Below are positions 2,629 to 47,792 of a stretch of DNA of 64,000 nucleotides, piece by piece. This DNA is from Escherichia phage KarlGJung. Positions within the stretch are counted from its first letter, which is position 1. Each line of letters begins with the position of its first letter. The stretch lies in sequence record MZ501089; one strand, written 5' to 3'. A model generated the notes under the pieces. The model had not been told where the DNA came from. It saw nothing but the letters and a program-made list of their open reading frames with translations, and did no database searches. The position numbers were made by a program, and so were the translations under genes.

Positions 2629-2994
2629 TTAAATATCAAATTCGTTAAGAACTACATCAAAGATTGCTTCCAAGTGCTCAGGTTTAGCTTTGTTACTCAG
2701 AATATGACGAATCCAAGTTTTAACTAAGAGTTTACGATTAGCACCATTCCAGCAAGGATGAGTCCCTAAATCGCGTTGGCGGAAATCATCATCCAGAGCG
2801 ATTTTGAAGTTGGAACCTTTCATCGTGATTGAAACCGTGATACCGTTTTCAAATCGCATATAAACGTAGTTAGGAGTCATATACTGTTCAATTTCGCATA
2901 CTGATCCGTTTTGATGTTTCCAGAGGCAAATAGTATCAATAGAACCTGCAATACCATTAGAAACATATTTACGTTCAAAGTTGATGTAGTTCAT
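2629..2994 (-). CDS. hypothetical protein (about 121 aa)
   Basis: ORF track frame; trimmed to ATG (MNYINF...) with GGAG Shine-Dalgarno; track start is TTG. Confidence 0.45.
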   Translation of the reverse strand: MNYINFERKYVSNGIAGSIDTICLWKHQNGSVCEIEQYMTPNYVYMRFENGITVSITMKGSNFKIALDDDFRQRDLGTHPCWNGANRKLLVKTWIRHILSNKAKPEHLEAIFDVVLNEFDI

Positions 2995-3061
2995 TTTATT
3001 CTCCAAGATGTTTAATTGCGGTACAGGTATATAATATCATATCCTGTACCAAAGTAAACAA

Positions 3062-3394
3062 TTATTTTACTACTTTCCAATGCTGCATGTCAAGTTTACC
3101 AACTTTTTTCATCTTCTCAATTAAGCGTTCTGCACGTTGGCGAGCTGTAACATAATGCCATTCGCCTAATTCATTTTGTTCAATTTTTCCAACGATTACT
3201 GTATTCAATTCATAAATCCAACCAGTAAAGAAATTATGAACTTGAATTGTAAAGGTGAAATCTGTTCCCATACCTTCTGTTGTTTCTACTTCAATAATAT
3301 CACCTTCAACTGCCATTAAGAACCACATAGTTTCATTATATTTACCATTGAAGCATTTAGTTTTAACTGCAGCGTTCAGATTAATCGTTTTCAT
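3062..3394 (-). CDS. hypothetical protein (110 aa)
   Basis: ORF track; ATG start with AAGGAG Shine-Dalgarno; early-type promoter directly upstream. Confidence 0.5.
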   Translation of the reverse strand: MKTINLNAAVKTKCFNGKYNETMWFLMAVEGDIIEVETTEGMGTDFTFTIQVHNFFTGWIYELNTVIVGKIEQNELGEWHYVTARQRAERLIEKMKKVGKLDMQHWKVVK

Positions 3395-3418
3395 TTTATT
3401 CTCCTTTGTTTGTGTAAG

Positions 3419-3452
3419 ATAATACTATCACAAAGGAACTATACTGTAAACA
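3419..3452 (-). promoter_or_regulatory. early (sigma-70-type) promoter
   Basis: Minus-sense GTTTAC, 18-nt spacer, TAGTAT(TAT); about 25 nt upstream of the ATG at 3394. Confidence 0.55.
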
Positions 3453-3470
3453 ACTTTATGCAATCTTTGG

Positions 3471-3499
3471 AAAATAAAAAAGGACTCCCGAAGGAGTCC
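3471..3499 (-). terminator. Rho-independent terminator (UUCG hairpin plus U-run)
   Basis: Minus-sense GGACUCC-UUCG-GGAGUCC followed by UUUUUUAUUUU. Confidence 0.65.
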
Positions 3500-3504
3500 T
3501 CAAC

Positions 3505-3681
3505 TTATGCTTTCTGCTTACCAAAACGAGAAGCATCATCTCGAAGAACCGCACGTGCTCGGCGCATGATCTTCTCAACAGTTTGATTGATACGAGAGTT
3601 CGACCCACGCTTGTAACCAGCGCGTTTAGAATCACCAACTTTCTTTTCAACTGCTTTCTTTGCTTTAACTTGTTTTGCCAT
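3505..3681 (-). CDS. small basic protein (about 58 aa)
   Basis: ORF track frame trimmed to MAKQVKAKKAVEKK...; lysine/arginine-rich; followed by a UUCG terminator hairpin. Start choice uncertain. Confidence 0.4.
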   Translation of the reverse strand: MAKQVKAKKAVEKKVGDSKRAGYKRGSNSRINQTVEKIMRRARAVLRDDASRFGKQKA

Positions 3682-3970
3682 TATAAATTCTCTTTTAAAT
3701 GAAAATGCAGGACTTATTGGCATTGCCTGCGCAAGCCCTCAAAGGGGTACTTAGGTTTTGAATATTTACCGACAGGATAACCATAAACCTCGTCATCATA
3801 CCACCAAGACTTACACAGATAACACTTTTCTGACGCATGATAGTAACATTCAAGAGGTACACCATAAAACTGCCGGGGTCTTAAAACTATAATGATTCGC
3901 AAATCATTAATCAGACAGTTCGATGGCTCCTCGATTTTAGCTCACACTAAGGCAGTGAATCTCCAATAAA

Positions 3971-11427: not shown

Positions 11428-12606
11428 TTAAAAGTATTTTTTAAAACTCATCATAACTTTATCATCAACATCATTATCAATCTGTGCAACAAGATAAGAT
11501 GACAGTTCTACTTCTTGTGGCGCTGATTGAACATTATCAGAATTAAGATATTCACGAATCCAAGGATATGGATGTTTAACCGGAGCATCGGTAATTGGGC
11601 ATGGAAGACCGCACTGTTTCATACGAGATACAGTTAAGTAATCAATAAAGCTCCACATGCTATTTGTATTTAATCCAGGAACATCGCCATCTTTAAATAA
11701 ATGAACTGCCCAATCTTTTTCTTGACGGTTAACTTCCATGAAAATATCAACTGCTTCTTGTTCACACTCTTGAGCAATTTTAACCCATTCATCACCATCC
11801 GTGCCAAGTTGAAGTTGACGAATAATATATTGTGTACCTTTAAGATGAAGCTGCTCATCACGTGCAATGAACTTCATAATCTTGGCATTACCTTCCATGA
11901 TTTCCATGTTCTTATGGAAGTTAAAGGTACATGCGAAAGATACATAAAAACGAATAGCTTCTAATGCATTAATAACGTGCAAACAGAGGTAAAGAGATTT
12001 CATTAGCTCACGCTTCCAATATGTCTCATGCTCAATAGCATCTTCAATAACGTCTTCGTCTGCATTAATTTCTTTTTGGTATTCGATATCAGCTTTAGCG
12101 TTTTCCCAATAACGAGTTTTAATCAGAACATCATCATAATAACGTCCAATGGATTCAGCACGTTTCATAATAGCTTCATCTAATACAATTTCATCAAATA
12201 CCTTCGATGGATCAGTATAAAGATTTCGCATGATATGTGTATATGAACGGCTGTGAATAGTTTCACTAAAAGTCCATGTAGCAACCCATGTATCAAGGCT
12301 TGGGTCTGAAATTAATGACATAAGTACAGCAGACGGTGCACGACCCTGAATGCTATCCAAAAGTGATTGATACTTCAGGTTGTTAGTAAAAATATTTTGC
12401 TGATACTGAGGAAGCTTATTAAACTGTGCAGCATCCATCATTAAGTTTACTTCTTCAGGACGCCAAAAAAATGATAAAGATTTCTCAATAAGTTCTTCAA
12501 ATACTCTATGTCGTTGAATATCATATCGAGCTAAACCCAATCCAGAACCAAAAAACATCGGCTCAGTCAAAATATTAACAGGGGATGTATTAAAAACTGT
12601 ACTCAT
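11428..12606 (-). CDS. nrdB: ribonucleotide reductase beta subunit (class Ia)
   Basis: 392-aa continuous ORF, ferritin-like RNR small subunit; T4-like N-terminus MSTVFNT...; no intron interruption. Confidence 0.92.
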   Translation of the reverse strand: MSTVFNTSPVNILTEPMFFGSGLGLARYDIQRHRVFEELIEKSLSFFWRPEEVNLMMDAAQFNKLPQYQQNIFTNNLKYQSLLDSIQGRAPSAVLMSLISDPSLDTWVATWTFSETIHSRSYTHIMRNLYTDPSKVFDEIVLDEAIMKRAESIGRYYDDVLIKTRYWENAKADIEYQKEINADEDVIEDAIEHETYWKRELMKSLYLCLHVINALEAIRFYVSFACTFNFHKNMEIMEGNAKIMKFIARDEQLHLKGTQYIIRQLQLGTDGDEWVKIAQECEQEAVDIFMEVNRQEKDWAVHLFKDGDVPGLNTNSMWSFIDYLTVSRMKQCGLPCPITDAPVKHPYPWIREYLNSDNVQSAPQEVELSSYLVAQIDNDVDDKVMMSFKKYF

Positions 12607-13244
12607 TTAGAATCCTTAAATTTACATTTATCATAATGCCATCTTAAAGCATTGCCTTTATTAACTTTCTTGCCACAATGTGGACAAGGCGGATACTCTG
12701 TACCTTGCTTAGTTCTCAAAGAAATCAAATCACGGGTTTCTTTAGTATGAGGAACATCTCTTGTCGGAGAGATTGTACCATACATCGGATTAAGCACGCC
12801 GACTTTAGCAGCAGCTATATTCTTTTTAGCTTCTTCGGTTTTAGGTTTTCTCATGCGAGCTAAATGCTCTTTGGTAAATTTCCTTCCTTTAAGGGCTCTA
12901 CTTATCTTTTCTCTGGTTTCCATAGAAACTTCACGTCCTGTAGCAGCTTCAGATAAACGTCGTCTACCTAATTCGTACAGTTGAGAAGAAATTTTATATG
13001 AGCGATTTTTACCAGTCAAGCACATTAAACCAAAAGCTTTCTTTAATCCTGGGGTGTCATATATTTTACATAAAAGCCAATGAGCTATAAAATGCTCTCT
13101 ACCTGTTAATTCAACTAAATTTTCTTTATCATCAGAACCTCCCATACATCTAGGGATTATATGATGAGTCTCTTTATATCCTAATAAAGGTTCCCGAGCC
13201 TGAGCTCGGGAAATTAGGTCGTTATAGATTTTTTGATAATTCAT
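12603..13244 (-). CDS. mobE: free-standing HNH homing endonuclease (mobE-like)
   Basis: HNH motif HHIIPRCMGGSDDKENLVELTGREHFIAH; repeated NUMOD-like DNA-binding modules (TREKISRALKGRK, TKEHLARMRKPKT, TEEAKKNIAAAKVG); C-terminal Cys/His cluster; lies between nrdA and nrdB like T4 mobE. Confidence 0.7.
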   Translation of the reverse strand: MNYQKIYNDLISRAQAREPLLGYKETHHIIPRCMGGSDDKENLVELTGREHFIAHWLLCKIYDTPGLKKAFGLMCLTGKNRSYKISSQLYELGRRRLSEAATGREVSMETREKISRALKGRKFTKEHLARMRKPKTEEAKKNIAAAKVGVLNPMYGTISPTRDVPHTKETRDLISLRTKQGTEYPPCPHCGKKVNKGNALRWHYDKCKFKDSK

Positions 13245-15508
13245 TACAATTTACAGGATGAACAATCTTCAGCTTTTGGAGTTTCTATTTCATAATCATC
13301 AGTACCAGAACCATCACGGGTATTATGATAATAGAAATTTTTTCCGCCAAAATACCAAAAATACAAAAGGTCATCAATCATTATTGACATTGGAACCTTT
13401 CCTTTTGGAAAAATCTGTGGGTCATAATATGTATTCGCTGAAGCTGATTGACATACCCATTTCAGCATAATAGCTACCTGCGTAAGATAAGGTTTATTAC
13501 CTTTCTTAGCTAATTTCCATGTATAATCATAGAGGTCTATGTTATGCTCAATATTGGGCACGACTTGATTAAAGGAGCCCTCTTTTGATTCTTTAACAGA
13601 GACTGGTCCACGTGGAGGCTCGATACCGTTTGTACTGTTAGAAACTTGGGAAGATGACTCACATGGCATAAGTGCTGATAATGTGCTATTACGGATGCCA
13701 AAGAGCTTAAGGTCTTCCCGCAGCGACGACCAGTCACAAACGTATTTTGGAGCTGCGATTTGGTCAATCTTTTTATTGTACCAGTCGATAGGTAATTCGC
13801 CTCGAGACCAACGAGTGTCTGAATAATATTCACAAGGTCCTTTTTCTTTGGCGAGCTTAATGGATGCTTTAATGAGTCCATACTGTAATCTCTCAAATAG
13901 TTCATGTGTTAAATCGTTAGCATCTTCATAAGAAGCAAAGTTACTTGCCAGCCAAGCTGCATAGTTAGTAACACCTACACCGAGGTTACGACGCTTTTTA
14001 GCTTTTTCTGCTTCAGGAACTGGATATCCTTGGTAATCCAAAAGATTATCAAGAGCACGAACTTGGACTTCTGCCAATTCATTAATTTTATCTTGGTCTT
14101 GCCAGTCAAAATTATCTAGTACGAATGCAGAGAGAGTACACAATCCAATTTCAGCATCAGGACTATTCACATCATTTGTTGGAATAGCAATTTCACAGCA
14201 CAAGTTACTCTGACGAATAGGCGCCTTTTCACGAATAAACGGAGTATAGTTATTCGTATTATCAATGAACTGTACATAAATCCTTGCTGTTCCTGAACGT
14301 TCAGTCATGAGCAATTCAAATAGTTCACGGGCTTTAATACGCTTTTTACGAATATTAGGGTCTTTTTCTGCTGCTTCGTATAATTCACGGAAACGGTTTT
14401 GGTCTTTAAAATAAGAATAATAAAGCTCGCCACCCATTTCATGCGGACTGAACAAAGTAATGTAATCGTTCTTTCCGAATCGTTCCATCATCAAATCATT
14501 CAGCTGAACACCATAATCCATATGACGAATGCGGTTTTCTTCTACGCCTTTGTTATTTTTCAAAACGAGAAGATTTTCAACTTCCAAATGCCAAATAGGA
14601 TAATAAGCAGTAGCAGCGCCGCCACGAATTCCACCCTGTGAGCATGATTTAACTGCAGTCTGAAAATGTTTCCAAAAAGGAATAACACCAGTATGGCGTA
14701 CTTCACCCATGCCAATCTTAGAACCTTCAGCACGAATCATACCAACGTTAATACCAATTCCAGCGCGTTTAGAGATATATTCAACAATTGAAGCGGAAGC
14801 CTTGTTGATAGACTTTAATGAATCACCTGCCTCAATAACAACACATGAACTAAACTGTCGAGTCGGAGTACGACAACCAGCCATAATAGGAGTTGGTAAT
14901 GAAATCTGTCGAGTAGATACTGCTTCATAAAAACGAATAACATGTTTTAATCTATCAACAGGTTCATCTTGATGCAATGCCATTCCAATAGTCATAAATG
15001 CAAACTGAGGAGTTTCATAAATTTGACCAGTGGTTTTATCTTTAACTAAATATTTTTCTTTTAATTGCATCGCCCCGGAATAAGTAAATTCCATATCCCG
15101 CTCGTGCTTAATTTTTGATTCTAAAAATGTAATTTCTTCTGCTGAATATTTTGACAATAATTCAGGGTCATATTTACCTTCATTTACACAGTAAGAAATA
15201 TGGTCAATAAATGAACGCGGTTCATACTGCCCATAAACATGCTTACGAAGAGCGAACATTAGACAACGTGCAGCTACATATTGATAATCAGGCTCTTCAA
15301 CCGAAATAGAATTCGCAGCAGCCTTAATGACAATAGTCTGAATATCATCAGTTGTCATTCCATCACGGAGATAAGATTTAATATTTTCATATAATTCATA
15401 AGGATCTACTGATGTTCCCTCAGCTGCCCAAGATAAAACTTTAATAATTTTTTGTGGGTCAAAGCTCTGAGAAACACCACTACTTTTGATAACATTAATT
15501 AATTGCAT
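13244..15508 (-). CDS. nrdA: ribonucleotide reductase alpha subunit (class Ia)
   Basis: 754 aa; ATP-cone N-terminus, active-site NLCCEI, C-terminal redox cysteines (CSSCKL); T4 NrdA-like start MQLINVIKSSGVSQSF. Confidence 0.95.
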   Translation of the reverse strand: MQLINVIKSSGVSQSFDPQKIIKVLSWAAEGTSVDPYELYENIKSYLRDGMTTDDIQTIVIKAAANSISVEEPDYQYVAARCLMFALRKHVYGQYEPRSFIDHISYCVNEGKYDPELLSKYSAEEITFLESKIKHERDMEFTYSGAMQLKEKYLVKDKTTGQIYETPQFAFMTIGMALHQDEPVDRLKHVIRFYEAVSTRQISLPTPIMAGCRTPTRQFSSCVVIEAGDSLKSINKASASIVEYISKRAGIGINVGMIRAEGSKIGMGEVRHTGVIPFWKHFQTAVKSCSQGGIRGGAATAYYPIWHLEVENLLVLKNNKGVEENRIRHMDYGVQLNDLMMERFGKNDYITLFSPHEMGGELYYSYFKDQNRFRELYEAAEKDPNIRKKRIKARELFELLMTERSGTARIYVQFIDNTNNYTPFIREKAPIRQSNLCCEIAIPTNDVNSPDAEIGLCTLSAFVLDNFDWQDQDKINELAEVQVRALDNLLDYQGYPVPEAEKAKKRRNLGVGVTNYAAWLASNFASYEDANDLTHELFERLQYGLIKASIKLAKEKGPCEYYSDTRWSRGELPIDWYNKKIDQIAAPKYVCDWSSLREDLKLFGIRNSTLSALMPCESSSQVSNSTNGIEPPRGPVSVKESKEGSFNQVVPNIEHNIDLYDYTWKLAKKGNKPYLTQVAIMLKWVCQSASANTYYDPQIFPKGKVPMSIMIDDLLYFWYFGGKNFYYHNTRDGSGTDDYEIETPKAEDCSSCKL

Positions 15509-16066: not shown

Positions 16067-16378
16067 TTACACCGCCATTTTTCCTTTCAAGACGCCGTGG
16101 GACTGATAATCTTTGAGAACGAAATCTTTAGGCCTGAGTTTAAGAATGTATTCCAATTGTTCTTTAGTAGAAAGATAGCGGAATTTATAAGGCAATCCGC
16201 CTATTACCAGTTCACAAAGCTCTTTAGGTTCACGACGCAAAATTTCTTTACATTGTTCTACGTGATTCATATAGATATGAGTATTACCACCGGAAAATAT
16301 CAAATCTCCCGGAATAAGATTACACATCTTAGCTACAATATGAACTAACGTAGCATATGATGCAATATTAAATGGAAG
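16067..16378 (-). CDS. td: thymidylate synthase, exon 2 (spliced to exon 1 at 17395..17943)
   Basis: Exon 2 begins LPFNIASYATLVH (ThyA core). The ORF-track Met at 16379-16381 is the last three intron nucleotides (..AUG). Exon 1 + exon 2 = 286 aa. Confidence 0.92.
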   Translation of the reverse strand, partial: LPFNIASYATLVHIVAKMCNLIPGDLIFSGGNTHIYMNHVEQCKEILRREPKELCELVIGGLPYKFRYLSTKEQLEYILKLRPKDFVLKDYQSHGVLKGKMAV

Positions 16379-17394
16379 CATTATGTTCAGATAAGGTCGT
16401 TAATCTTACCCCGGAATTATATCCAGCTGCATGTCACCATGCAGATCAGACTATATCTCCAACTTGTTAAAGCAAGTTGTCTATCGTTTCGAGTCACTTG
16501 ACCCTACTCCCCAAAGGGATAGTCGTTAGGCATTTATGTAGAACCAATTCCATTTATCAGATTTTACACGATAAGTAACTAATCCAGACGAAATTTTAAA
16601 ATGTCTAGCTGCATCTGCTGCACAATCAAAAATAACCCCATCACATGAAATCTTTTTAATATTACTAGGCTTTTTACCTTTCATCTTTTCTGATATTTTA
16701 GATTTAGTTATGTCTGAATGCTTATGATTAAAGAATGAATTATTTTCACCTGAACGATTTCTGCATTTACTACAAGTATAAGCAGAAGTTTGTATGCGAA
16801 CACCGCACTTACAAAACTTATGGGTTTCTGGATTCCAACGCCCGTTTTTACTTCCGGGTTTACTGTAAAGAGCTTTCCGACCATCAGGTCCAAGTTTAAG
16901 CATCTTAGCTTTAACAGTTTCAGAACGTTTCTTAATAATTTCTTCTTTTAATGGATGCGTAGAACATGTATCACCAAACGTTGCATCAGCAATATTGTAT
17001 CCATTAATTTTAGAATTAAGCTCTTTAATCCAAAAATTTTCTCGTTCAATAATCAAATCTTTCTCATATGGAATTTCTTCCAAAATAGAACATTCAAACA
17101 CATTACCATGTTTGTTAAAAGACCTCTGAAGCTTTATAGAAGAATGGCATCCTTTTTCTAAATCTTTAAAATGCCTCTTCCATCTCTTTTCAAAATCTTT
17201 AGCACTTCCTACATATACTTTATTGTTTAAAGTATTTTTAATCTGATAAATTCCGCTTTTCATAAATACCTCTTTAAATATAGAAGTATTTATTAAAGGG
17301 CAGTCCTACAATTTAGCACGGGATTGTCTACTAGAGAGGTTCCCCGTTTAGATAGATTACAAGTATAAGTCACCTTATACTCAGGCCTCAATTA
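16379..17394 (-). mobile_element. group I self-splicing intron in td, carrying the I-TevI gene (1016 nt)
   Basis: Exon 1 ends ...FLG (last nt U), then in-frame TAA and the sequence UAAUUGAGGCCUGAGUAUAAGGUGACUUAUACUUGUAAUCUAUCUAAACGGGG...; intron ends ...AUAAUG (terminal G) before CUUCCAUUUAAU. Length and ends match the T4 td intron as I recall it. Confidence 0.9.
16526..17263 (-). CDS. I-TevI: GIY-YIG homing endonuclease I-TevI (intron-encoded)
   Basis: 245 aa; N-terminal GIY-YIG domain (MKSGIYQIKNTLNNKVYVGSAKDFEKRWKRH); zinc finger CKCGVRIQTSAYTCSKC; C-terminal DNA-binding domain; lies inside the td intron. Confidence 0.95.
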   Translation of the reverse strand: MKSGIYQIKNTLNNKVYVGSAKDFEKRWKRHFKDLEKGCHSSIKLQRSFNKHGNVFECSILEEIPYEKDLIIERENFWIKELNSKINGYNIADATFGDTCSTHPLKEEIIKKRSETVKAKMLKLGPDGRKALYSKPGSKNGRWNPETHKFCKCGVRIQTSAYTCSKCRNRSGENNSFFNHKHSDITKSKISEKMKGKKPSNIKKISCDGVIFDCAADAARHFKISSGLVTYRVKSDKWNWFYINA

Positions 17395-17943
17395 ACCCAA
17401 GAAAACATCTACTGATCGTTGATACCACTGAAGGTCAAGGTATCCATTACGCACATTAAACTGATAGAACATATGACAAGGCGGTAATGCCATATATTTA
17501 AGTTCAGCTGGATTCCATGCTGAAACAATTTGACGCCTATCATTTGGCAGTTTTTTAATACGATCAATAGTTTCAACTAATTGATCCACACCGCCGAAAT
17601 CACGCCATTGTTTACCGTATATAGGACCAAGTTCACCACTATGATATCCTAGGTCTTTAGCCTGGTTTTCATAGTTATCGTCCCAAATAGTTTTACCTTG
17701 AATAAGACTACCATGTGTGCGAAGACGTAAATCATTAACATTGGTAGAACCGGAAATAAACCATAGAAGCTCAGCAATGCATGCATTCCACGCAAGCTTC
17801 TTAGTTGTTACCGCAGGAAAACCTTTAGTTAAATCCCAACGTAATTTAGTACCGAACAAAGCAATTGTTCCTGTGCCTGTTCGGTCATCGGTTTCATAGC
17901 CATTTTCAAAAATGTCTTTAATTAAATCTTGGTATTGTTTCAT
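17395..17943 (-). CDS. td: thymidylate synthase, exon 1
   Basis: 183 codons, MKQYQDLIKDIFENGYETDDRTGTGT... through catalytic ...LPPCHMFYQF... to ...VDVFLG, followed by intron-borne TAA. Confidence 0.92.
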
Positions 17944-21642: not shown

Positions 21643-21712
21643 TTTTATTTCCTTTTTAATTTAATTAACAGTTGGTGCTATGACGATGTATGACCTCATA
21701 GCTGGTCAGTGA
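21643..21712 (-). promoter_or_regulatory. gene 32 translational operator (pseudoknot plus A/U-rich leader)
   Basis: Minus-sense leader ...ACUGACCAGCUAUGAGGUCAUACAUCGUCAUAGCACC... then AUUAAAUUAAAAAGGAAAUAAAA-AUG; matches the T4 gene 32 autoregulatory operator as I recall it. Confidence 0.65.
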
Positions 21713-21725
21713 GATAATTATAATC

Positions 21726-21733
21726 TATTTATA
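21726..21733 (-). promoter_or_regulatory. late promoter (TATAAATA) for gene 32
   Basis: Exact minus-sense TATAAATA between gene 59 and gene 32. Confidence 0.55.
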
Positions 21734-21741
21734 ATAAGCAA

Positions 21742-29063: not shown

Positions 29064-29714
29064 ATGGCTGATTTAAAAGTAGGTTCAACTGTAGGTGGAT
29101 CTGTCATTTGGCATCAAGGAAATTTTCCATTGAATTCAGCCGGTGACGATGTACTCTACAAATCATTTAAAATATATTCAGAATATAATAAACCACAGGC
29201 AGCTGATAACGATTTCGTTTCTAAAGCTAATGGTGGTACTTACACCGGTCCAATTACTATTAATTACGGGGTAAATAGTTATCTTCAATTAAGTAATAAT
29301 GAAACCCCCATTCGAATTCGTTCTGGTGGCGGTACCGGTAATACTCTTGTAGTTGGCGGCTCTTCCGGCGGTATTAGTTTTAGACCTGCAGGTAGTGAAA
29401 TCACTACTGGACAAATTACGATTACGCCAGAAGGTTTGACAACATTTACCAAAGCTGTAACGGCTCCATCTGTAACTGTTACATCTACTCCTTCCGCAGC
29501 ATCTGATGTTACTCGTAAAGATTATGTTGATGGAGCAATAAATACTGTTACAGCAAATGCAAACTCTAGGGTATTACGCTCTGGAGACACTATGACAGGA
29601 AATTTAACTGCGCCAAACCTTTTTTCACAGAATCCTGCATCTCAACCTTCACACGTTCCACGATTTGACCAAATCGTAATGAAGGATTCTGTTCAAGATT
29701 TCGGCTATTATTAA
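29064..29714 (+). CDS. 36: gp36 long tail fiber distal connector
   Basis: 216 aa, [24 protein letters not shown]...; late promoter TATAAATA upstream. Confidence 0.85.
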
Positions 29715-29722
29715 GAGGACTT

Positions 29723-32692
29723 ATGGCTACTTTAAAACAAATACAATTTAAAAGAAGCAAAACCGCAGGTCAACGTCCTGCTGCTTCAGTATTAGCCGAA
29801 GGTGAATTGGCTATAAACTTAAAAGATAAAACAATTTTCACAAAAGATGACTCAGGTAGTGTTATAGAATTAGGTTTAAAATATGGAGGAACTATAAATG
29901 GGTCTTTAGAGGTTACAGAAAATATAACTGGAACTTTAATTGGAAATTCTAGCACAGCTACTAAATTGCAAACACCTAGGAAAATTAATGGTATATCTTT
30001 TGATGGGTCAAAAGATATCACGCTAACTCCATCTGACATAAATGTCAATAGCACAACATTTATAAAAAATAATGGCGAATTACCTACTGATGCTAATTTA
30101 GATACGTATGGGCCCATTGAAGAATATCTTGGTGTTTGGTCGAAATCTACTTCAACAAATGCGCAACCAGCAAATAAATTCCCAGAAGAAAATGCCGTAG
30201 GTGTACTAGAAGTATTTGTGGCCGGCCAATTTGCTGGCACTCAGCGTTATACTGTAAGATCTGGTAACGTCTATATTCGTTCCTTATCTGCTAAATGGAA
30301 TGGCGTCGATGGTCCATGGGGTGTGTGGCGTAATGTTCAAGCGTCAACTCGTCCACTTTCACAAACGATTGACCTTGATAGCTTGGGAGAATTAGAACAT
30401 TGTGGCTTATGGAGAAACAGTTCAAGCGCAATCGCATCATTTGATCGCCATTATCCAGAAGAAGGATCAGCCGCACAAGGATTTTTAGAAATATTTGAAG
30501 GTGGTTTATACGCAAGAACGCAGCGTTATACTACCCGCATGGGTATGGTTTATACTCGTTGTCTCGCTGCTGCATGGGATGCTAGTGCACCTAAGTGGGA
30601 GGAATGGAAGCAGGTTGGTCATGGCACACCAGCGACTTTCTATGATGGAGATCTGAATGATTTTAAAACTCCTGGGTTATATAACATTTTAGGCACTGAT
30701 GCCGTTATTAACTGTCCTACTGGTGAAGGTTTACCAGCCGTTATTGTTGGTTTGCTGGAAGTTAAACAGCGTGCTTCTGGTGGTGCTATTTTCCAAAAAT
30801 TTACTACTGCCGGAACGGGTGCAACTACTCGCGATCGTATTTTTGAGCGTGCATATACTGGTGGTGCGTGGGGCGCATGGAACGAAGTATATACATCTTA
30901 TTCTCTTCCAATTACTTTGGGTATGGGTGGTATTAAAGCTCAATTAGCGGAGTTAGATTGGCAAACCTTTGATTTTGTTCCTGGTAGTATGTTTAGCGTT
31001 CCTTTGAACAAAATAAAGAACATGCCAGCAAATATGGATTGGGGGACGATTGACGGAAACTTGGTTATGTTTTCCGTTGGTCCTAGCGAACACACTGGCA
31101 CAGGGCGTACTGTTCAAGTGTGGCGCGGTACTGTATCTCAGGCGAACTATCGTTATTTCGTTGTTCGTATCGCTGGTAATCCAGGAAGTAGGACTAATAC
31201 TTGTCGTCGTGTTGTTGTGGAAGATGGTCGCCACACATGGACAGCACAGCAAGATTTTAATGGTGCTGTCAACTTTGGTGGTTCGACAACTTTTAAGTCC
31301 ACTACAACTTTTAACACAGAAGTTAAATTCCGTTCATCCAATGCATTTAAAATGTATGGCGGTAATTTTGGCACAATTTTCCGTAATGATGGTGAAAGTC
31401 TTTATATTCTTTCCACCGACGAAAATGATCAAGATGGAAACTTTAATACAAATAGACCTTTCCGCTATCAATTAAAAACTGGCGATGTTACTTTGGGTGG
31501 CACTAGCGGTGCTAACGCTTTAGTATTAAAAGGCGGTTCTCTTGCTGCTACCTTTAGCGGTGATGTTAATTTAAGTAAAGGTACGCTGACGTTTGAAGCG
31601 GGTGGTAAGCAATCACGCGATTATTTCCGGTTTAATCATTGGGGTGATAGCAATAACGCTCGTGATAACATTATTCAGTTAGAAGATAGTAAAGGCGCTC
31701 ATTTTTCCACTGAACGTACTTTAGCGACGGGTGCAATTAAAACTAAGTTCTTTGGTGAAGTTGAATCCGATGGTCGATTGACTATTAAACGTCCTGGTGA
31801 TTCTATTGTATTATCAACAACTGCTGGTAATGCTTTGCATATTCGTGGTGACATAGACGGGACTGGTAACTGGTATATTGGTAAGGGTGGTGCTGATAAT
31901 TCGCTAGCATTTTATAGCTATGCTTCTCAGGCGGCAGTACATATCACAAACAATGGTGAGATTGCGTTAAACCCGCAAAATACCGCAATGGTTAACGTTA
32001 ACCGTGACCGTGTACGCATTAACGGTTCTGGATGGATTGCTAGACAACCGGGTGATTGGGGCAACCAATGGCGAGTAGAAGCTCCATTATTCGTTGATCA
32101 TGGTTATGTTTCACAGGATTGTTATTATCCTATTCTTAAAGCAAGAAGCGTTATAACCAATCAAGGATATAGCACCGCTGTTGACTTTGGTATGCGTCGT
32201 ATTCCATCACAGTGGGGGCAAGCAATCATTCGTGTCGGATCCACGGAGGCTTCTCCTGATGCTGGACACCCACAAGCTGTGTTTGAATTCCATCATGATG
32301 GATTCTTTTATACACCAGGAAATGGTAGCTTTAGCGATGTGTATATTCGTTCTGACTCCCGTCTCAAGATTAATAAAGAAGAATTAGAATATGGAGCGGT
32401 CGAAAAAGTTTGCCGACTGAAAGTTTATATTTACGATAAAGTTAAGTCTATTAAAGACCGTAGTGTTATTAAACGTGAAGTTGGTATTATTGCTCAGGAC
32501 CTTGAAAAGGAATTACCGGAAGCTGTATCTAAAGTTGAAGTTGATGGATCTGATGTTCTGACAATTTCTAACTCTGCTGTGAATGCTCTTTTAATTAAGG
32601 CTATTCAGGAAATGAGTGAAGAAATTAAAGAATTGAAAACGCCTCTCTTTACTAAAATTGCTCGCAAAATTAGTAAATATTTTAAATTCTAA
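29723..32692 (+). CDS. 37: gp37 long tail fiber distal subunit with C-terminal chaperone-like domain
   Basis: 989 aa; N-terminal region similar to gp36/gp34 N-termini; C-terminal roughly 115 aa begins at an SDSRLK motif followed by predicted helical segments. Confidence 0.9.
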
Positions 32693-32728
32693 CAACAAGG
32701 GGGAAATGCCCCCTTTGGAGTATAAATT

Positions 32729-33511
32729 ATGGCAGTAGTTGGTGTTCCTGGTTGGATTGGAAGTTCAGCCGCAAATGAAACAGGACAGCGCTGGATGAGT
32801 CAAGCGGCTGGTCAATTAAGATTGGGTGTTCCTTGCTGGATGAGTCAATTTGCAGGTCGCTCACGAGAAATTATTCACACGCTTGGAGCAGACCATAACT
32901 TCAATGGTCAATGGTTCCGAGATAGATGTTTTGAGGCAGGTAGTGCACCTATAGTGTTTAATATTACGGGTGATTTAGTATCATATTCTAAAGATGTTCC
33001 TTTATTCTTCATGTACGGAGATACACCAAATGAATATGTTCAGTTAAATATACATGGCGTAACGATGTATGGACGTGGCGGTAATGGTGGTAGCAATAGT
33101 CCTGGCTCAGCTGGAGGTCATTGTATTCAAAACGATATTGGTGGGAGACTAAGAATTAATAATGGTGGAGCTATTGCTGGCGGCGGTGGCGGCGGTGGCG
33201 GCGGATATTATTCTCCTTTTTCACAAATGAGATTAACCTTTGGCGGTGGTGGTGGGCGTCCGTTTGGTGCACCTGGCGGATCTATTGATATGCAATCAGG
33301 CGCAACTGCTGGTACTATTTCTGCACCTGGCTCAGGATCCGTGAATGGTATCTATAATGGTGGAAACGGTGGTGAAGTAGGTTCCGCGGGAGGTAGATGC
33401 AATATTCGCGGTCAAGGATCTGAATATAATGGCGGCGCTGCTGGTTATGCTGTCATAGGGTCTGCTCCAACGTGGCAAAATGTTGGAGCAATATATGGTC
33501 CAAGAGTATAA
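32729..33511 (+). CDS. 38: gp38 receptor-binding adhesin, glycine-rich (T2/T6-type)
   Basis: 260 aa with several glycine-rich motifs ([50 protein letters not shown]) separated by short variable segments; directly follows gene 37. Confidence 0.85.
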
Positions 33512-33541
33512 TGTGAATAAATACCCTTAAAAGGAGGGTCT

Positions 33542-36960: not shown

Positions 36961-36993
36961 TCTATAGTATCATGTTTAAAGCAGAAGTAAACA
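36961..36993 (-). promoter_or_regulatory. early promoter upstream of motA
   Basis: Minus-sense (T)GTTTAC, 17 nt, TACTAT. Confidence 0.5.
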
Positions 36994-37031
36994 CTTTTTT
37001 GCACTCTTTTTCAAGAGCTCTAATAAAGTAC

Positions 37032-37259
37032 TTACTTAATGTTCAGATTACGAACTTCGATTTCGTCTTCATGGGCAAAATCAAACTGTTTGAATTCTGT
37101 GTCACCTTTAAATTTAAAAATCATTGTGAAGAAAGTCAGAACACCAGGTTTTTCTTCACGAACTCCACAGATATCATATTCAATACCATCTACAACCAGT
37201 TTGTTAGCAGTCAGAGCATTTTTAGCTTTAACGATTTCGTTTTCGATTTTAAATTTCAT
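37032..37259 (-). CDS. hypothetical protein (75 aa)
   Basis: ORF track; ATG start; early promoter upstream. Confidence 0.45.
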   Translation of the reverse strand: MKFKIENEIVKAKNALTANKLVVDGIEYDICGVREEKPGVLTFFTMIFKFKGDTEFKQFDFAHEDEIEVRNLNIK

Positions 37260-37305
37260 TTTTTGTATCTCCGGGTTGTTTGTTTCAGTTCATTTATTTG
37301 ATAGT

Positions 37306-37394: not shown

Positions 37395-37544
37395 TTACTG
37401 CATGACTGTGATAACTGTCATGATAACACGTTGAATTCCGAACGCAAGAAGACCTCCTGCTACGGCAGGAACAACACCTAAACCCGCCAGTAAAATGCCA
37501 CCAGATACTAATGCAGCGCTTGTGATACCAATGAATGGACTCAT
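37395..37544 (-). CDS. small hydrophobic membrane peptide (about 49 aa)
   Basis: Hand-translated ORF MSPFIGITSAALVSGGILLAGLGVVPAVAGGLLAFGIQRVIM...; ATGA overlap with the gene 52 stop; followed by a terminator hairpin. Confidence 0.3.
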   Translation of the reverse strand: MSPFIGITSAALVSGGILLAGLGVVPAVAGGLLAFGIQRVIMTVITVMQ

Positions 37545-38869
37545 TTGATTTCCTCTAAATCTTTGGTGTATTCTGTAACTACATCAGTAGTTTTCCAATA
37601 TTCGTTTTCTTCTTTTTTGGCTTTAGCTTCTTCAGCAAGTTTCTTTGCTTCGTCGGAAGTCATATGAAAAATGTTCATTCCAACTAGTTTATCAACATAA
37701 GAAGAATACATATCAATTTTAGAAAGTTCTTCGGTCAGTTCTTTGCGAGTTTTACCTTGTACAACAATTTCACCTGAAATTACTTTCTTAATGAAATGTG
37801 CCTTGGCAAAAGCTAAACGAAATGCTGATTCAGTTTCTTTGATTTTGTTATCAATTCGTTTTTGGACATAAGTTTTACGAACTTCAACGAAGTCTTTGAT
37901 TAAATCAACTACATTATCGTAAACTTGCAGCTTTCCTTTCTCATTAATGACGGTAATATTCTGGGAACGACGCTCAATCAACCCGAAGTCTTTCATAATT
38001 TTTGCATGGCGTTCTTCTTCATTATCGCTCAAAGAGTATTCTTTTCGGAATTTAACTTTGAAGCCAAAGCCATGCTCACCACAAGCATCATCCCATGTAA
38101 TGAAGCCTTTATCTTCAAGCGGGTCTAAGATTTTACTCACATAAGTTTCACGATCATACTTATATGGAATCTCAGTGATATGCATTTGAGTTCGTGAAGT
38201 AAACTTATATGTTCCACGAATTTCATATTGCCCATCAATTTCAACGACTTCACCACGAAATTCTGGGAATTCTACCTTCGGTTTAGTTACTTTCTTTCCT
38301 TGAAGAGCTTGCAGTACAGCTTTCTTGACAGAAGAAACACTATGAGGAAGAATGTAAGTTGCATAACCAGTTGCAATACCGGAAACGCCATTAAGAAGAA
38401 CAGTAGGAATAATAGGCAAATAGAAAGCAGGCGGAATGTGTTCTTTATCTTGATGTACTGGAGCATATTCAGTATCTTTATATACGTTATAGAAATTTTT
38501 ACTTACACGAGCAAAAATATAACGACTTGCTGCTGCCTTTTGGACAGTACGAGAACCAAAGTTTCCTTGACCGTCTAACAGAGGAAAGTTATTATTCCAA
38601 GTGTTAGCCATCAAAGCACCTGCGTCTTGCGCAGAGTTTTCACCATGATGATATCCAAGGTCCGCTACACCGCCTGCGATAGAAGCGAGTTTGTGAAACT
38701 TATCTTTATTTCCTCGTGCCAAATCAAGAGCTCGAGCAATAACAAATCGTTGAACTGGCTTAAATCCGTCAATCATATTTGGAATGGCACGATTTTCAAC
38801 CGTGTACATAGCATAAGCCAATGCTTCATTATCAATGATACTTTTTAAATCACGATTATTCAGTTGCAT
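37541..38869 (-). CDS. 52: gp52 DNA topoisomerase II medium subunit (GyrA-like)
   Basis: 442 aa, MQLNNRDLKSIIDNEALAYAMYTVENRAIPNMIDGFKPVQR...; type IIA topoisomerase breakage-reunion domain. Confidence 0.95.
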   Translation of the reverse strand: MQLNNRDLKSIIDNEALAYAMYTVENRAIPNMIDGFKPVQRFVIARALDLARGNKDKFHKLASIAGGVADLGYHHGENSAQDAGALMANTWNNNFPLLDGQGNFGSRTVQKAAASRYIFARVSKNFYNVYKDTEYAPVHQDKEHIPPAFYLPIIPTVLLNGVSGIATGYATYILPHSVSSVKKAVLQALQGKKVTKPKVEFPEFRGEVVEIDGQYEIRGTYKFTSRTQMHITEIPYKYDRETYVSKILDPLEDKGFITWDDACGEHGFGFKVKFRKEYSLSDNEEERHAKIMKDFGLIERRSQNITVINEKGKLQVYDNVVDLIKDFVEVRKTYVQKRIDNKIKETESAFRLAFAKAHFIKKVISGEIVVQGKTRKELTEELSKIDMYSSYVDKLVGMNIFHMTSDEAKKLAEEAKAKKEENEYWKTTDVVTEYTKDLEEIK

Positions 38870-40664: not shown

Positions 40665-40928
40665 TCATAGTTCAATCTCAGCGATTTTCATTTCATTATT
40701 GTTAATAGCATTTTTAAGACTATCCGAAAGAATTACATTCCAGTGGTCATTCATATGACCATTAACTAAGCGTGTAATTTCTTCGGGAGTTGAAAAATAA
40801 GGCGTATCAGACTCCCAATGCGATAATCCTAAGCGAGTATAAATCATGCCTTCATCATCGCTAGAATATTCAACTGACACAAACTCATCAGTTATTTTAT
40901 GTTTAACGTAAAAGAACTTAAATTTCAT
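40665..40928 (-). CDS. hypothetical protein (87 aa)
   Basis: ORF track; ATG start with GGAGG Shine-Dalgarno; strong early promoter upstream. Confidence 0.5.
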   Translation of the reverse strand: MKFKFFYVKHKITDEFVSVEYSSDDEGMIYTRLGLSHWESDTPYFSTPEEITRLVNGHMNDHWNVILSDSLKNAINNNEMKIAEIEL

Positions 40929-40953
40929 TTTCTGTTCCTCCGTAGTTGATAGT

Positions 40954-45008: not shown

Positions 45009-45212
45009 TTAATTCATATTACGCTTAATAACTTCAGCAACTTCTAGTAATTCATCTTTAGTTGCAGTGTCGGATTGAATTTTATCTCTAATATCTTTAA
45101 AGCGGTTTTTAAATTCTTCGGCTTCTCCCATATCGAAAAAGCGTTGAATGATTCTATATTCTCGATGAACTGCTTTATCAAAAAGTTCTAAATTTACTTT
45201 ATATGATTTCAT
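45009..45212 (-). CDS. hypothetical protein (67 aa)
   Basis: ORF track; ATG start; early promoter upstream; position of T4 rIIA.1. Confidence 0.5.
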
Positions 45213-45234: not shown

Positions 45235-45268
45235 TTAATTATACCACATCCTTGTGGTAAAGTAAACT
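45235..45268 (-). promoter_or_regulatory. early promoter upstream of the rIIA operon
   Basis: Minus-sense (A)GTTTAC, 18 nt, TATAAT. Confidence 0.55.
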
Positions 45269-47084
45269 ACTGGCTCATCCATTCTTTACGAAGGTCAGCA
45301 TTATCTCCCATGAGCATTTCAAAAAGCTCTTTCCAGTTCTCAGGAAGTTTAACAACATCATATACTGGATTTTGAATCATCTCACGATATTCAGATTTTT
45401 CCAAAGAGCCAAGTCCTTTAATATAACGGATGCTATGTTTAGGTAGAGCATCTTTAGCACTCTCATATTCAGCGACTGTATAAAACCATTCTTGTTTTTT
45501 ACCGACCTGAGCGATGATTACAGGAGTTTTGACAAAACGAATTCTTCCTTGCTCAAACAGTTCTGGCCAATTACTAAAAAACCCGAGCAGAGAAGGATAA
45601 ATGCTTCCTAGACCATCATGGTCAGCATCAGTCATAATAGCAATATTATGATAATTCAAGTTTTCAGCTTTTTCACCGAGAACTAATCCAGTGATTGCGC
45701 AAATATCAAATAGTTCTTTGTTTTTAAGCATATCTGCATAAGACATACCCCAACTGTTGAGAACTTTACCGCGCAATGGATAACCACCGTGAAGTTCTTT
45801 ATCACGAACATCAATAAGATATCCGATAGCCGAATCACCCTCAGTCAAGAAAAGAGTAGTGTCAGCATCTTTACCACAAAGATTCGCTTTGATATGTTTA
45901 TGAACCTTAGCTTTAGAAGCCTTTTTAGCTGCTTTAGTTTCTGCTGCTTTTTCTGCCGCCAATTTACGAGCCAAAGCAGCTTCAATAATCGGCATTAGAA
46001 TTGCTTCATTATTTAGAATAGCGCGTGAAATCTTTTTAGCATCAAGTTGAATATGACTACGAATTTCGCCAAATGGAGAAGTCAAACGCTCTTTAGTTTG
46101 AGAATCAAATCGCATGTTTTTCATATCACGAACAAACATAACGATAGTCAAACATTCTTTAACACGCGCTTTAGTTACATCAATTTTGAACTTACGTTTG
46201 ATTTGTGGAATAAGGTCTTCACAAATATCATCCATAACACAGTCAATGTGATGGCCACCATTCTTAGTGTGAATGTTATTGACGTATGTTAATTGACGAA
46301 AACCATCCGGTGAACGACCAACCGCAATAGAACAATTTTCTTGTTCTTGAACAATAGCATGCTCATCATATTGGCGTGCATATTTCTTAAAATTGCCCTG
46401 AACCTTTTTACCATTAAAGGTAAATTGAATATCAGGATAAACTACTGCAAGTGTCTGGAGACGATCTAGTGTAATGTCAAGATAAACTTGGGACAGCTCA
46501 TTAGTTTCAAATGACATAAAATCAGGAATGAAAGTAACACGAGTTCCTTTCCATTTTCCAGGAATAGTTTCCCATGATTTATTTTCCATGCCATTTGAAC
46601 AACGAACTACAATATTATTTTGACCATCACCAGTTTCACCGACAAACATCACAGAAAAAATGTTTGTCAAACTAGAACCAACACCATTCATACCGCCAGT
46701 GACGCGTTCTTTATCATCACCGAAGTTACCACCTGCTTTTGGAATAGTCCATGCAGCAACAGGACCAGGAATTTCTTCACCGGTAGGTGTTTTAACCATC
46801 GCCTGCGGAATACCACGACCGTTATCTTCAACTGTTACTTGATTGTTTTTAATAGTAACATTAATTTTATTTGCGAATTTAAACTTAGTACGAATACCTT
46901 CATCTACTGAGTTATCGATAATTTCATCAATAAGCTTAACAAGACCAGGTACATACTGAACACTTTCCCATTTACCAAACAGAAAGCGCTCATGCATTTC
47001 ATTAGCAGAAGAGCCAATATACATGCCGCTACGCTTTTTGATATGTTCAATATCGCTCAGAATTTTAATTTCATTCTTAATCAT
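45267..47084 (-). CDS. 39: gp39 DNA topoisomerase II large subunit (GyrB-like), unsplit
   Basis: 605/606-aa continuous ORF with GHKL ATPase region and TOPRIM-like region; C-terminal part corresponds to what is the separate gene 60 product in T4. Confidence 0.92.
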   Translation of the reverse strand: MIKNEIKILSDIEHIKKRSGMYIGSSANEMHERFLFGKWESVQYVPGLVKLIDEIIDNSVDEGIRTKFKFANKINVTIKNNQVTVEDNGRGIPQAMVKTPTGEEIPGPVAAWTIPKAGGNFGDDKERVTGGMNGVGSSLTNIFSVMFVGETGDGQNNIVVRCSNGMENKSWETIPGKWKGTRVTFIPDFMSFETNELSQVYLDITLDRLQTLAVVYPDIQFTFNGKKVQGNFKKYARQYDEHAIVQEQENCSIAVGRSPDGFRQLTYVNNIHTKNGGHHIDCVMDDICEDLIPQIKRKFKIDVTKARVKECLTIVMFVRDMKNMRFDSQTKERLTSPFGEIRSHIQLDAKKISRAILNNEAILMPIIEAALARKLAAEKAAETKAAKKASKAKVHKHIKANLCGKDADTTLFLTEGDSAIGYLIDVRDKELHGGYPLRGKVLNSWGMSYADMLKNKELFDICAITGLVLGEKAENLNYHNIAIMTDADHDGLGSIYPSLLGFFSNWPELFEQGRIRFVKTPVIIAQVGKKQEWFYTVAEYESAKDALPKHSIRYIKGLGSLEKSEYREMIQNPVYDVVKLPENWKELFEMLMGDNADLRKEWMSQ

Positions 47085-47107
47085 CACTTATCCTCGTTTG
47101 GTTTCGG

Positions 47108-47140
47108 GAATATTATACTCCAGTAATCATAAAGCTAAAG
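47108..47140 (-). promoter_or_regulatory. possible MotA-dependent middle promoter for gene 39
   Basis: Minus-sense TTAGCTTTA (MotA-box-like), 12 nt, TATAAT, about 25 nt upstream of the gene 39 ATG. Imperfect box. Confidence 0.35.
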
Positions 47141-47154
47141 GCCCGAAGGCCTTT

Positions 47155-47415: not shown

Positions 47416-47420
47416 AATTT

Positions 47421-47792
47421 TCACTTAAATTTAATGGCTTGAAGGAGACTAATAATTCTTAAACGGCTTCTTTCATCTTTAACTGTAAAAGAAAGAGGAT
47501 CGCCAGATTTCATAGTGATAGTGCATTCAAAATCAAAATCTTCGGAAACTTCTTTGAAGAAGTCAAATTCTTCATCATAAATTAGAACATTACTCTGACA
47601 ACTATGAAGAATTTTTCCATCATTTCCAGATGCTGTACTAATCATTGTAACATTATGACCTTTCATATCTTCAACGATAAATTCACTAGTCAATATTACA
47701 GCATTAATAGAACTATTCCTATTACTAGCAGAAAGTAGATATTTCTGTTCTTCACCTTCACGAATGCAATATTTCTTACCGATTTTAAACAT
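47421..47792 (-). CDS. hypothetical protein (123 aa)
   Basis: ORF track; ATG start. Confidence 0.45.
   Translation of the reverse strand: MFKIGKKYCIREGEEQKYLLSASNRNSSINAVILTSEFIVEDMKGHNVTMISTASGNDGKILHSCQSNVLIYDEEFDFFKEVSEDFDFECTITMKSGDPLSFTVKDERSRLRIISLLQAIKFK

Follow-up and report, generated by a model that had tools for sequence, protein, structure and literature searches.

The large subunit of the DNA topoisomerase II of Escherichia phage KarlGJung (MZ501089) is encoded by a single uninterrupted gene 39 in the 64,000-nt stretch of DNA analyzed here, referred to as the window. We consider it very probable that this is the normal gene 39 of a Tequatrovirus, of the T2/T6/RB14-like T-even form, in which the site that T4 fills with a mobA/bypass cassette is empty. 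The features of the locus, together with the gene for the partner subunit, are:

45267 to 47084, minus strand: gene 39 in uninterrupted form, GyrB-like large subunit of DNA topoisomerase II, 605 aa, from the ORF list, Pfam, BLASTP, and PDB comparison
47091 to 47095, minus strand: well-spaced Shine-Dalgarno sequence GAGGA, read directly, with 6 nt between it and ATG 47084
45603 to 45666, minus strand: 64-nt 'empty site' segment, codons about 474 to 494, replaced by the mobA/bypass cassette in T4, from the homology breakpoints against T4
45009 to 45212, minus strand: rIIA.1, adjoining gene 39 downstream, Pfam T4_RIIA1, E = 1.4e-33
47112 to 47154, minus strand: 39.1/39 intergenic control region, from a hairpin scan and the sequence
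37541 to 38869, minus strand: gene 52, GyrA-like DNA-cleavage subunit and partner of gp39, 442 aa, Pfam DNA_topoisoIV, E = 9e-77

Gene 39 runs on the minus strand from the ATG at 47084 through 605 codons and a stop codon, 1818 nt in all. An earlier sequence-only reading had proposed a single ORF of 605 or 606 aa without naming its strand, and both lengths were confirmed: the ATG gives 605 aa, while the ORF listing extends the frame to 45267..47087 (minus strand), giving 606 aa with a GTG start. We place the start at ATG 47084 because the characterized homologues all begin with MIKNEIK, which is the N-terminus of gp39 in T4, T2, T6, and RB14; the GAGGA motif lies only 3 nt from the alternative GTG. 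The chance of 605 open codons at the base composition of the window (~35% G+C) is p ~3e-21, and the minus-strand ORF is genuine.

Pfam searches of the gene 39 product returned HATPase_c (E = 1.9e-9), DNA_gyraseB, and TOPRIM_C in the expected order. The motifs of the GHKL ATPase are present as the N-box EIIDNSVDE (residues 54–62), DNGRGIP (87–93), and GGMNGVGSS (130–138), and they are followed by the transducer (DNA_gyraseB, residues 250–384, E = 1.5e-13) with QTKERL at 329–334, of which QTK occupies 329–331. The TOPRIM residues reside in the same polypeptide as the ATPase, in LTEGDSA (413–419, Glu-415) and MTDADHDG (484–491, Asp-486, Asp-488, and Asp-490), and the C-terminal TOPRIM-associated domain was detected by TOPRIM_C (E = 4e-7). 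The core Pfam Toprim model had no match in this product at E <= 0.001; the region is covered by the E...DxDxD residues and by end-to-end alignments with type IIA topoisomerases of known structure. In T6 gp39, Glu-415, Asp-486, and Asp-488 bind metal, and Asp-490 contacts DNA (Xin et al., Nat Commun 2024, PMC11461880). Judged by its sequence, the gene 39 product is a B-type (GyrB/ParE-like) subunit of a type IIA topoisomerase, in its T-even gp39 form.

The partner subunit is nearly invariant, with gp52 identical to that of T4 at 441 of 442 residues and N253D as the sole change. Two copies each of gp39 and gp52 would form an enzyme that uses ATP to move one DNA duplex across a temporary break made in a second, and this enzyme would likely relax and unknot phage DNA during replication. 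Gene 39 itself would be translated conventionally from one mRNA, without recoding.

Alignment of the protein with T4 gp39 and gp60 by BLASTP showed that it is co-linear with the two joined end to end. Residues 1–473 correspond to T4 gp39 1–473 (465/473 identical, 98%), and residues 472–605 correspond to T4 gp60 27–160 (128/134 identical, 96%), so that the C-terminus is that of gp60. T4 gp39 residues 474–516 and gp60 residues 1 to ~30 have no counterpart in KarlGJung. With gp60 taken from residue 32 (32–160), the T4 proteins are 96–98% identical to the matching portions of KarlGJung gp39, and the two phages have the same enzyme. At the DNA level, window positions 47417–45667 match T4 5661–3911 at 96.6%, and 45602–44990 match T4 2793–2181 at 98.4%. 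High-identity homology to T4 therefore stops at window 45667/T4 3911 and restarts at 45602/T4 2793; in between, 1117 bp of T4 (2794–3910) stand in place of the 64 nt at 45603–45666, and the only match is a 46-nt stretch (45658–45613) that is 76% identical to T4 2899–2854.

The T4 side of this comparison bears out the earlier account of that phage, namely that its gene is split by a mobA insertion and requires a 50-nt bypass. In T4 (NC_000866, 2458–5328), the 1117-bp element gives rise to a 43-aa tail on gp39 and a ~30-aa head on gp60, and it contains a mobA pseudogene, a diverged version of the segment it replaces, and the 50-nt gap that is bypassed from GGA to GGA. The mobA gene is a pseudogene in the T4 laboratory strain, whereas it is intact (273 aa) in RB55, and where relatives have an intact mobA the cassette measures 1106 bp. 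The published MobA element measures 1097–1106 nt and removes 64 nt on insertion; it contains a diverged 'homR' copy of 67–81% identity and in the T4 clade reaches 9 nt past the gap (Manning & Atkins, bioRxiv 10.1101/2022.08.31.505936). The DNA breakpoints found here reproduce these published boundaries.

The content of the 64-nt segment agrees with an empty site. It is 100% identical to T2, as is the stretch from GGTGAAAAAGCT through CTGCTCGG, but only 76% identical to the copy borne by the T4 element. The point of the T4 50-nt gap falls after Gly-491 (GGT, 45614–45612), and the codons here read GAT GGT CTA GGA AGC (Asp-490, Gly-491, Leu-492, Gly-493, Ser-494). In T4, by comparison, GAT GGA is followed by the 50-nt gap (TAG...TTGGA) and then by TTA GGT TCT.

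Searches for the parts of the cassette were negative. With intact RB55 MobA as the tblastn query, no match to mobA was obtained at the gene 39 locus, and the sole match in the window was a paralogue at 12963–13244. Neither the element-derived C-terminal extension of gp39 (CTE) nor the N-terminal extension of gp60 (NTE) had a significant tblastn match in any part of the window (lowest E = 0.3), and gp39 has the length of the parental RB14 protein. No match in the window was found to the T4 take-off hairpin with up to 3 mismatches, or to the 50-nt gap by blastn-short. There is no UAG after the take-off glycine, where the GGT of Gly-491 runs directly into CTA GGA AGC, and RNA folding around the would-be take-off site gave nothing exceptional (z = -1.2) under a procedure that recovered the 10-bp take-off hairpin of T4. 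The sequence-only reading was thus correct that insertion and bypass element are both missing: the would-be take-off codon is GGT in place of GGA, and it lacks the hairpin.

The undivided gene is widely shared. Several hundred Tequatrovirus records match the DNA of the locus at 95–99% identity, the closest being those of fFiEco06, fHoEco02, and JB75 (99.1% each). The locus matches 548 phage records, 500 of them at 90% identity or above, and a T4-type mobA cassette occurs in only 43; in about 90% of relatives the site is empty. The gp39 of JB75 (AXC33989) is identical to the KarlGJung protein, that of RB14 (NC_012638, gene name '60plus39') differs by 1 aa, and that of T2 (AP018813) by 2 aa. All three phages have the uninterrupted gene in the same order (rIIA, rIIA.1, 39, 39.1) and otherwise differ from KarlGJung at the locus by scattered synonymous changes only. 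Synteny extends to T4, where rIIA.1 comes after gene 60, in agreement between the T4 and RB14 annotations.

An empty site could also have arisen by secondary loss, if an ancestor that carried the mobA/bypass cassette regained the intact gene through gene conversion, by recombining with a co-infecting uninvaded relative. Such a history would be in keeping with the mosaic nature of T-even genomes, with the variable presence of other homing-endonuclease genes in the same window, with flanks of gene 39 that are about equally diverged from T4, T2, and RB14 (1–8 differences per 100 nt), and with the 'hit and run' loss described in Aeromonas phages (Manning & Atkins, bioRxiv 10.1101/2022.08.31.505936). 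However, the Aeromonas cases show CTE/NTE remnants, which KarlGJung lacks, and the 64-nt segment is of the parental type seen in T2, unlike the homR version of the element. The empty site is also the prevailing state among relatives, and the homing drive goes from empty to occupied. A search of the flanks for cassette-linked co-conversion tracts, in 100-nt bins against T4, RB55, T2, and RB14, gave an uninformative mosaic. Scarless conversion leaves no trace and is unfalsifiable from one sequence; on the evidence above we regard it as very improbable. Were KarlGJung a scarless revertant, it would be informative on how a homing element that is tolerated only through translational bypassing is gained and lost.

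The remaining explanation, that a faulty assembly or consensus collapsed or dropped the insertion and left a single ORF, has no supporting point that we could find and can be dismissed almost entirely, since the same 1818-nt gene is uninterrupted at 98–99% identity in hundreds of independently sequenced phages (T2, RB14, and JB75 included) and the breakpoints coincide exactly with the published element boundaries.

We therefore retain the reading of an uninterrupted gene 39 with an empty cassette site, which no result of the analysis contradicts. A scar-free 64 nt of parental type is the description given of uninvaded genomes (Manning & Atkins, bioRxiv 10.1101/2022.08.31.505936), and we infer that the site was never invaded. 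The sequence-only reading had called this a pre-invasion state. That term stands as far as the site is empty, parental in type, and free of scars; as a statement of history it goes further, and a site restored scarlessly by recombination would look the same.

Concerning the susceptibility of the site, nicking by MobA and co-transfer of the split together with the 50-nt insert were shown in T2 by Bonocora et al. 2011, as related by Manning & Atkins, whose account of that work positions the nick ~20 nt upstream of where the gap is inserted. This reported nick region falls inside the 64-nt segment. With a target segment that matches T2 at every position, KarlGJung is presumably a MobA-sensitive, cassette-free recipient. 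In a mixed infection with a phage having intact mobA, the site would be nicked by MobA and the cassette acquired, as expected from the identity to T2.

The uninterrupted gene 39 has been described since 1985 and is the majority state, with the split, bypassing T4 form as the rare exception. The explanation by a mobile cassette goes back to Bonocora et al. 2011, with an extension by Manning & Atkins 2022 (bioRxiv 10.1101/2022.08.31.505936). The significance of the present locus is accordingly small beyond correct annotation. The proper label is DNA topoisomerase II large subunit (gp39, uninterrupted '60plus39' form), with no recoding annotation, and the state of the gene marks the phage as a member of Tequatrovirus that is free of the cassette and presumably open to MobA.

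The enzyme can be compared with one of known structure. T6 gp39 (PDB 8ylu_C) also has 605 aa and is identical at 604 of them, Gln-526 in KarlGJung being His in T6. Cryo-EM structures of the T6 topoisomerase II are available as 8YLU, 8YO1, 8YO5, 8YO7, 8YOD, and 8YON; 8YLU represents the central domain with DNA, and relaxation activity is established for the T6 enzyme (Xin et al., Nat Commun 2024, PMC11461880). The same paper describes the T6 and T2 enzymes as gp39+gp52 and the T4 enzyme as gp39+gp60+gp52, and cites Huang, Wei & Casjens 1985 for the equivalence of T6/T2 gp39 to T4 gp39 plus gp60. The T6 enzyme is thus likewise of two subunits, and no functional difference is expected from the one residue. 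The 604/605 identity suggests that gp39 of KarlGJung likely supports ATP-dependent DNA relaxation and decatenation.

Similarity reaches the cellular type IIA topoisomerases: GyrB/ParE and the N-terminal half of eukaryotic Topo II also carry a GHKL ATPase, a transducer, and a TOPRIM domain in the same succession. Aligned over its full length against PDB, gp39 matched human Topo II alpha/beta with E = 1e-59 and ParE with E = 4e-48, and it also aligned end to end with yeast Topo II and GyrB. The phage enzyme is much smaller than its cellular relatives. The T4 and T6 topoisomerases II relax DNA without supercoiling it, and the KarlGJung enzyme may, by analogy, resemble both.

Upstream of gene 39, a GC-rich hairpin (AAAGGCCTTCGGGCCTTT, 47154–47137) follows the stop codon of 39.1 (47157–47155), and JB75 has a terminator annotated at this position. 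Downstream of the hairpin are AGCTTTA (47136–47130), a spacing of 12 nt, and TATAAT (47117–47112), an arrangement that resembles the T4 middle-promoter consensus and that we take to be a putative MotA-dependent middle promoter. Between 39.1 and 39.2, a 123-aa ORF (47421–47792, minus strand) is inserted relative to T4; it has no Pfam match and is common to RB14 (RB32ORF005c) and JB75.

Within gene 39, a local difference from the T4 reference was observed just before the QTK loop. Around codons 326–328, T4 (NC_000866) reads CGA TTG ATT CGT CAA (R-L-I-R-Q), whereas the context of window positions 46101–46109 reads CGA TTT GAT TCT CAA (R-F-D-S-Q), and F-D-S is also found in T2, RB14, JB75, and T6. 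The T4 version reads as a -1/+1 compensated frameshift over three codons, which could be either a real peculiarity of T4 or an error of early sequencing retained in the reference.

Other homing endonucleases and insertions were recorded elsewhere in the window. A full-length HNH + NUMOD3 endonuclease ORF of the MobE type (213 aa, 12603–13244, minus strand) lies between nrdA (13244–15508, minus strand) and nrdB (11428–12606, minus strand); its first 90 residues share 54% identity with MobA. This interval is annotated with two ORFs in T4, mobE and nrdB.1, and is empty in JB75. The nrdB intron of T4 (~600 bp, with I-TevIII) is absent at window 11930/11933, leaving nrdB intron-less. The mobE gene has been linked in the literature to trans-homing of the nrdB intron, and a phage with mobE but without that intron may merit a look.

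The td gene (16067–17943, minus strand) is split by a ~1-kb insert, as in T4, and the insert ORF (16526–17263) encodes a full-length I-TevI of 245 aa with GIY-YIG, zinc finger, and DNA-binding domain; JB75 is without this insert. An Rfam search of the whole window at gathering thresholds returned no matches, including none for the td group I intron, which is evidently present; presumably the large ORF interrupts the model. The segG gene (T4 147909–148541, between genes 32 and 59) is absent at window 21705–21741. The set in the window thus comprises mobE and I-TevI as present and mobA, segG, and I-TevIII as absent, a pattern that is typical T-even mosaic.

Further departures from T4 do not involve homing endonucleases. 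The distal tail-fibre genes 36/37/38 (29242–33517, plus strand) have almost no T4 match by megablast and mostly match JB75, with a gap at 31259–31798, which suggests a non-T4, possibly T2-like, receptor-binding module. Relative to T4, there is an insertion of ~326 bp at 36969–37295, between motA and motA.1/52, that contains a 75-aa ORF (37032–37259, minus strand), and another of ~240 bp at 40697–40939 in the ndd-denB region; both insertions are common to JB75.
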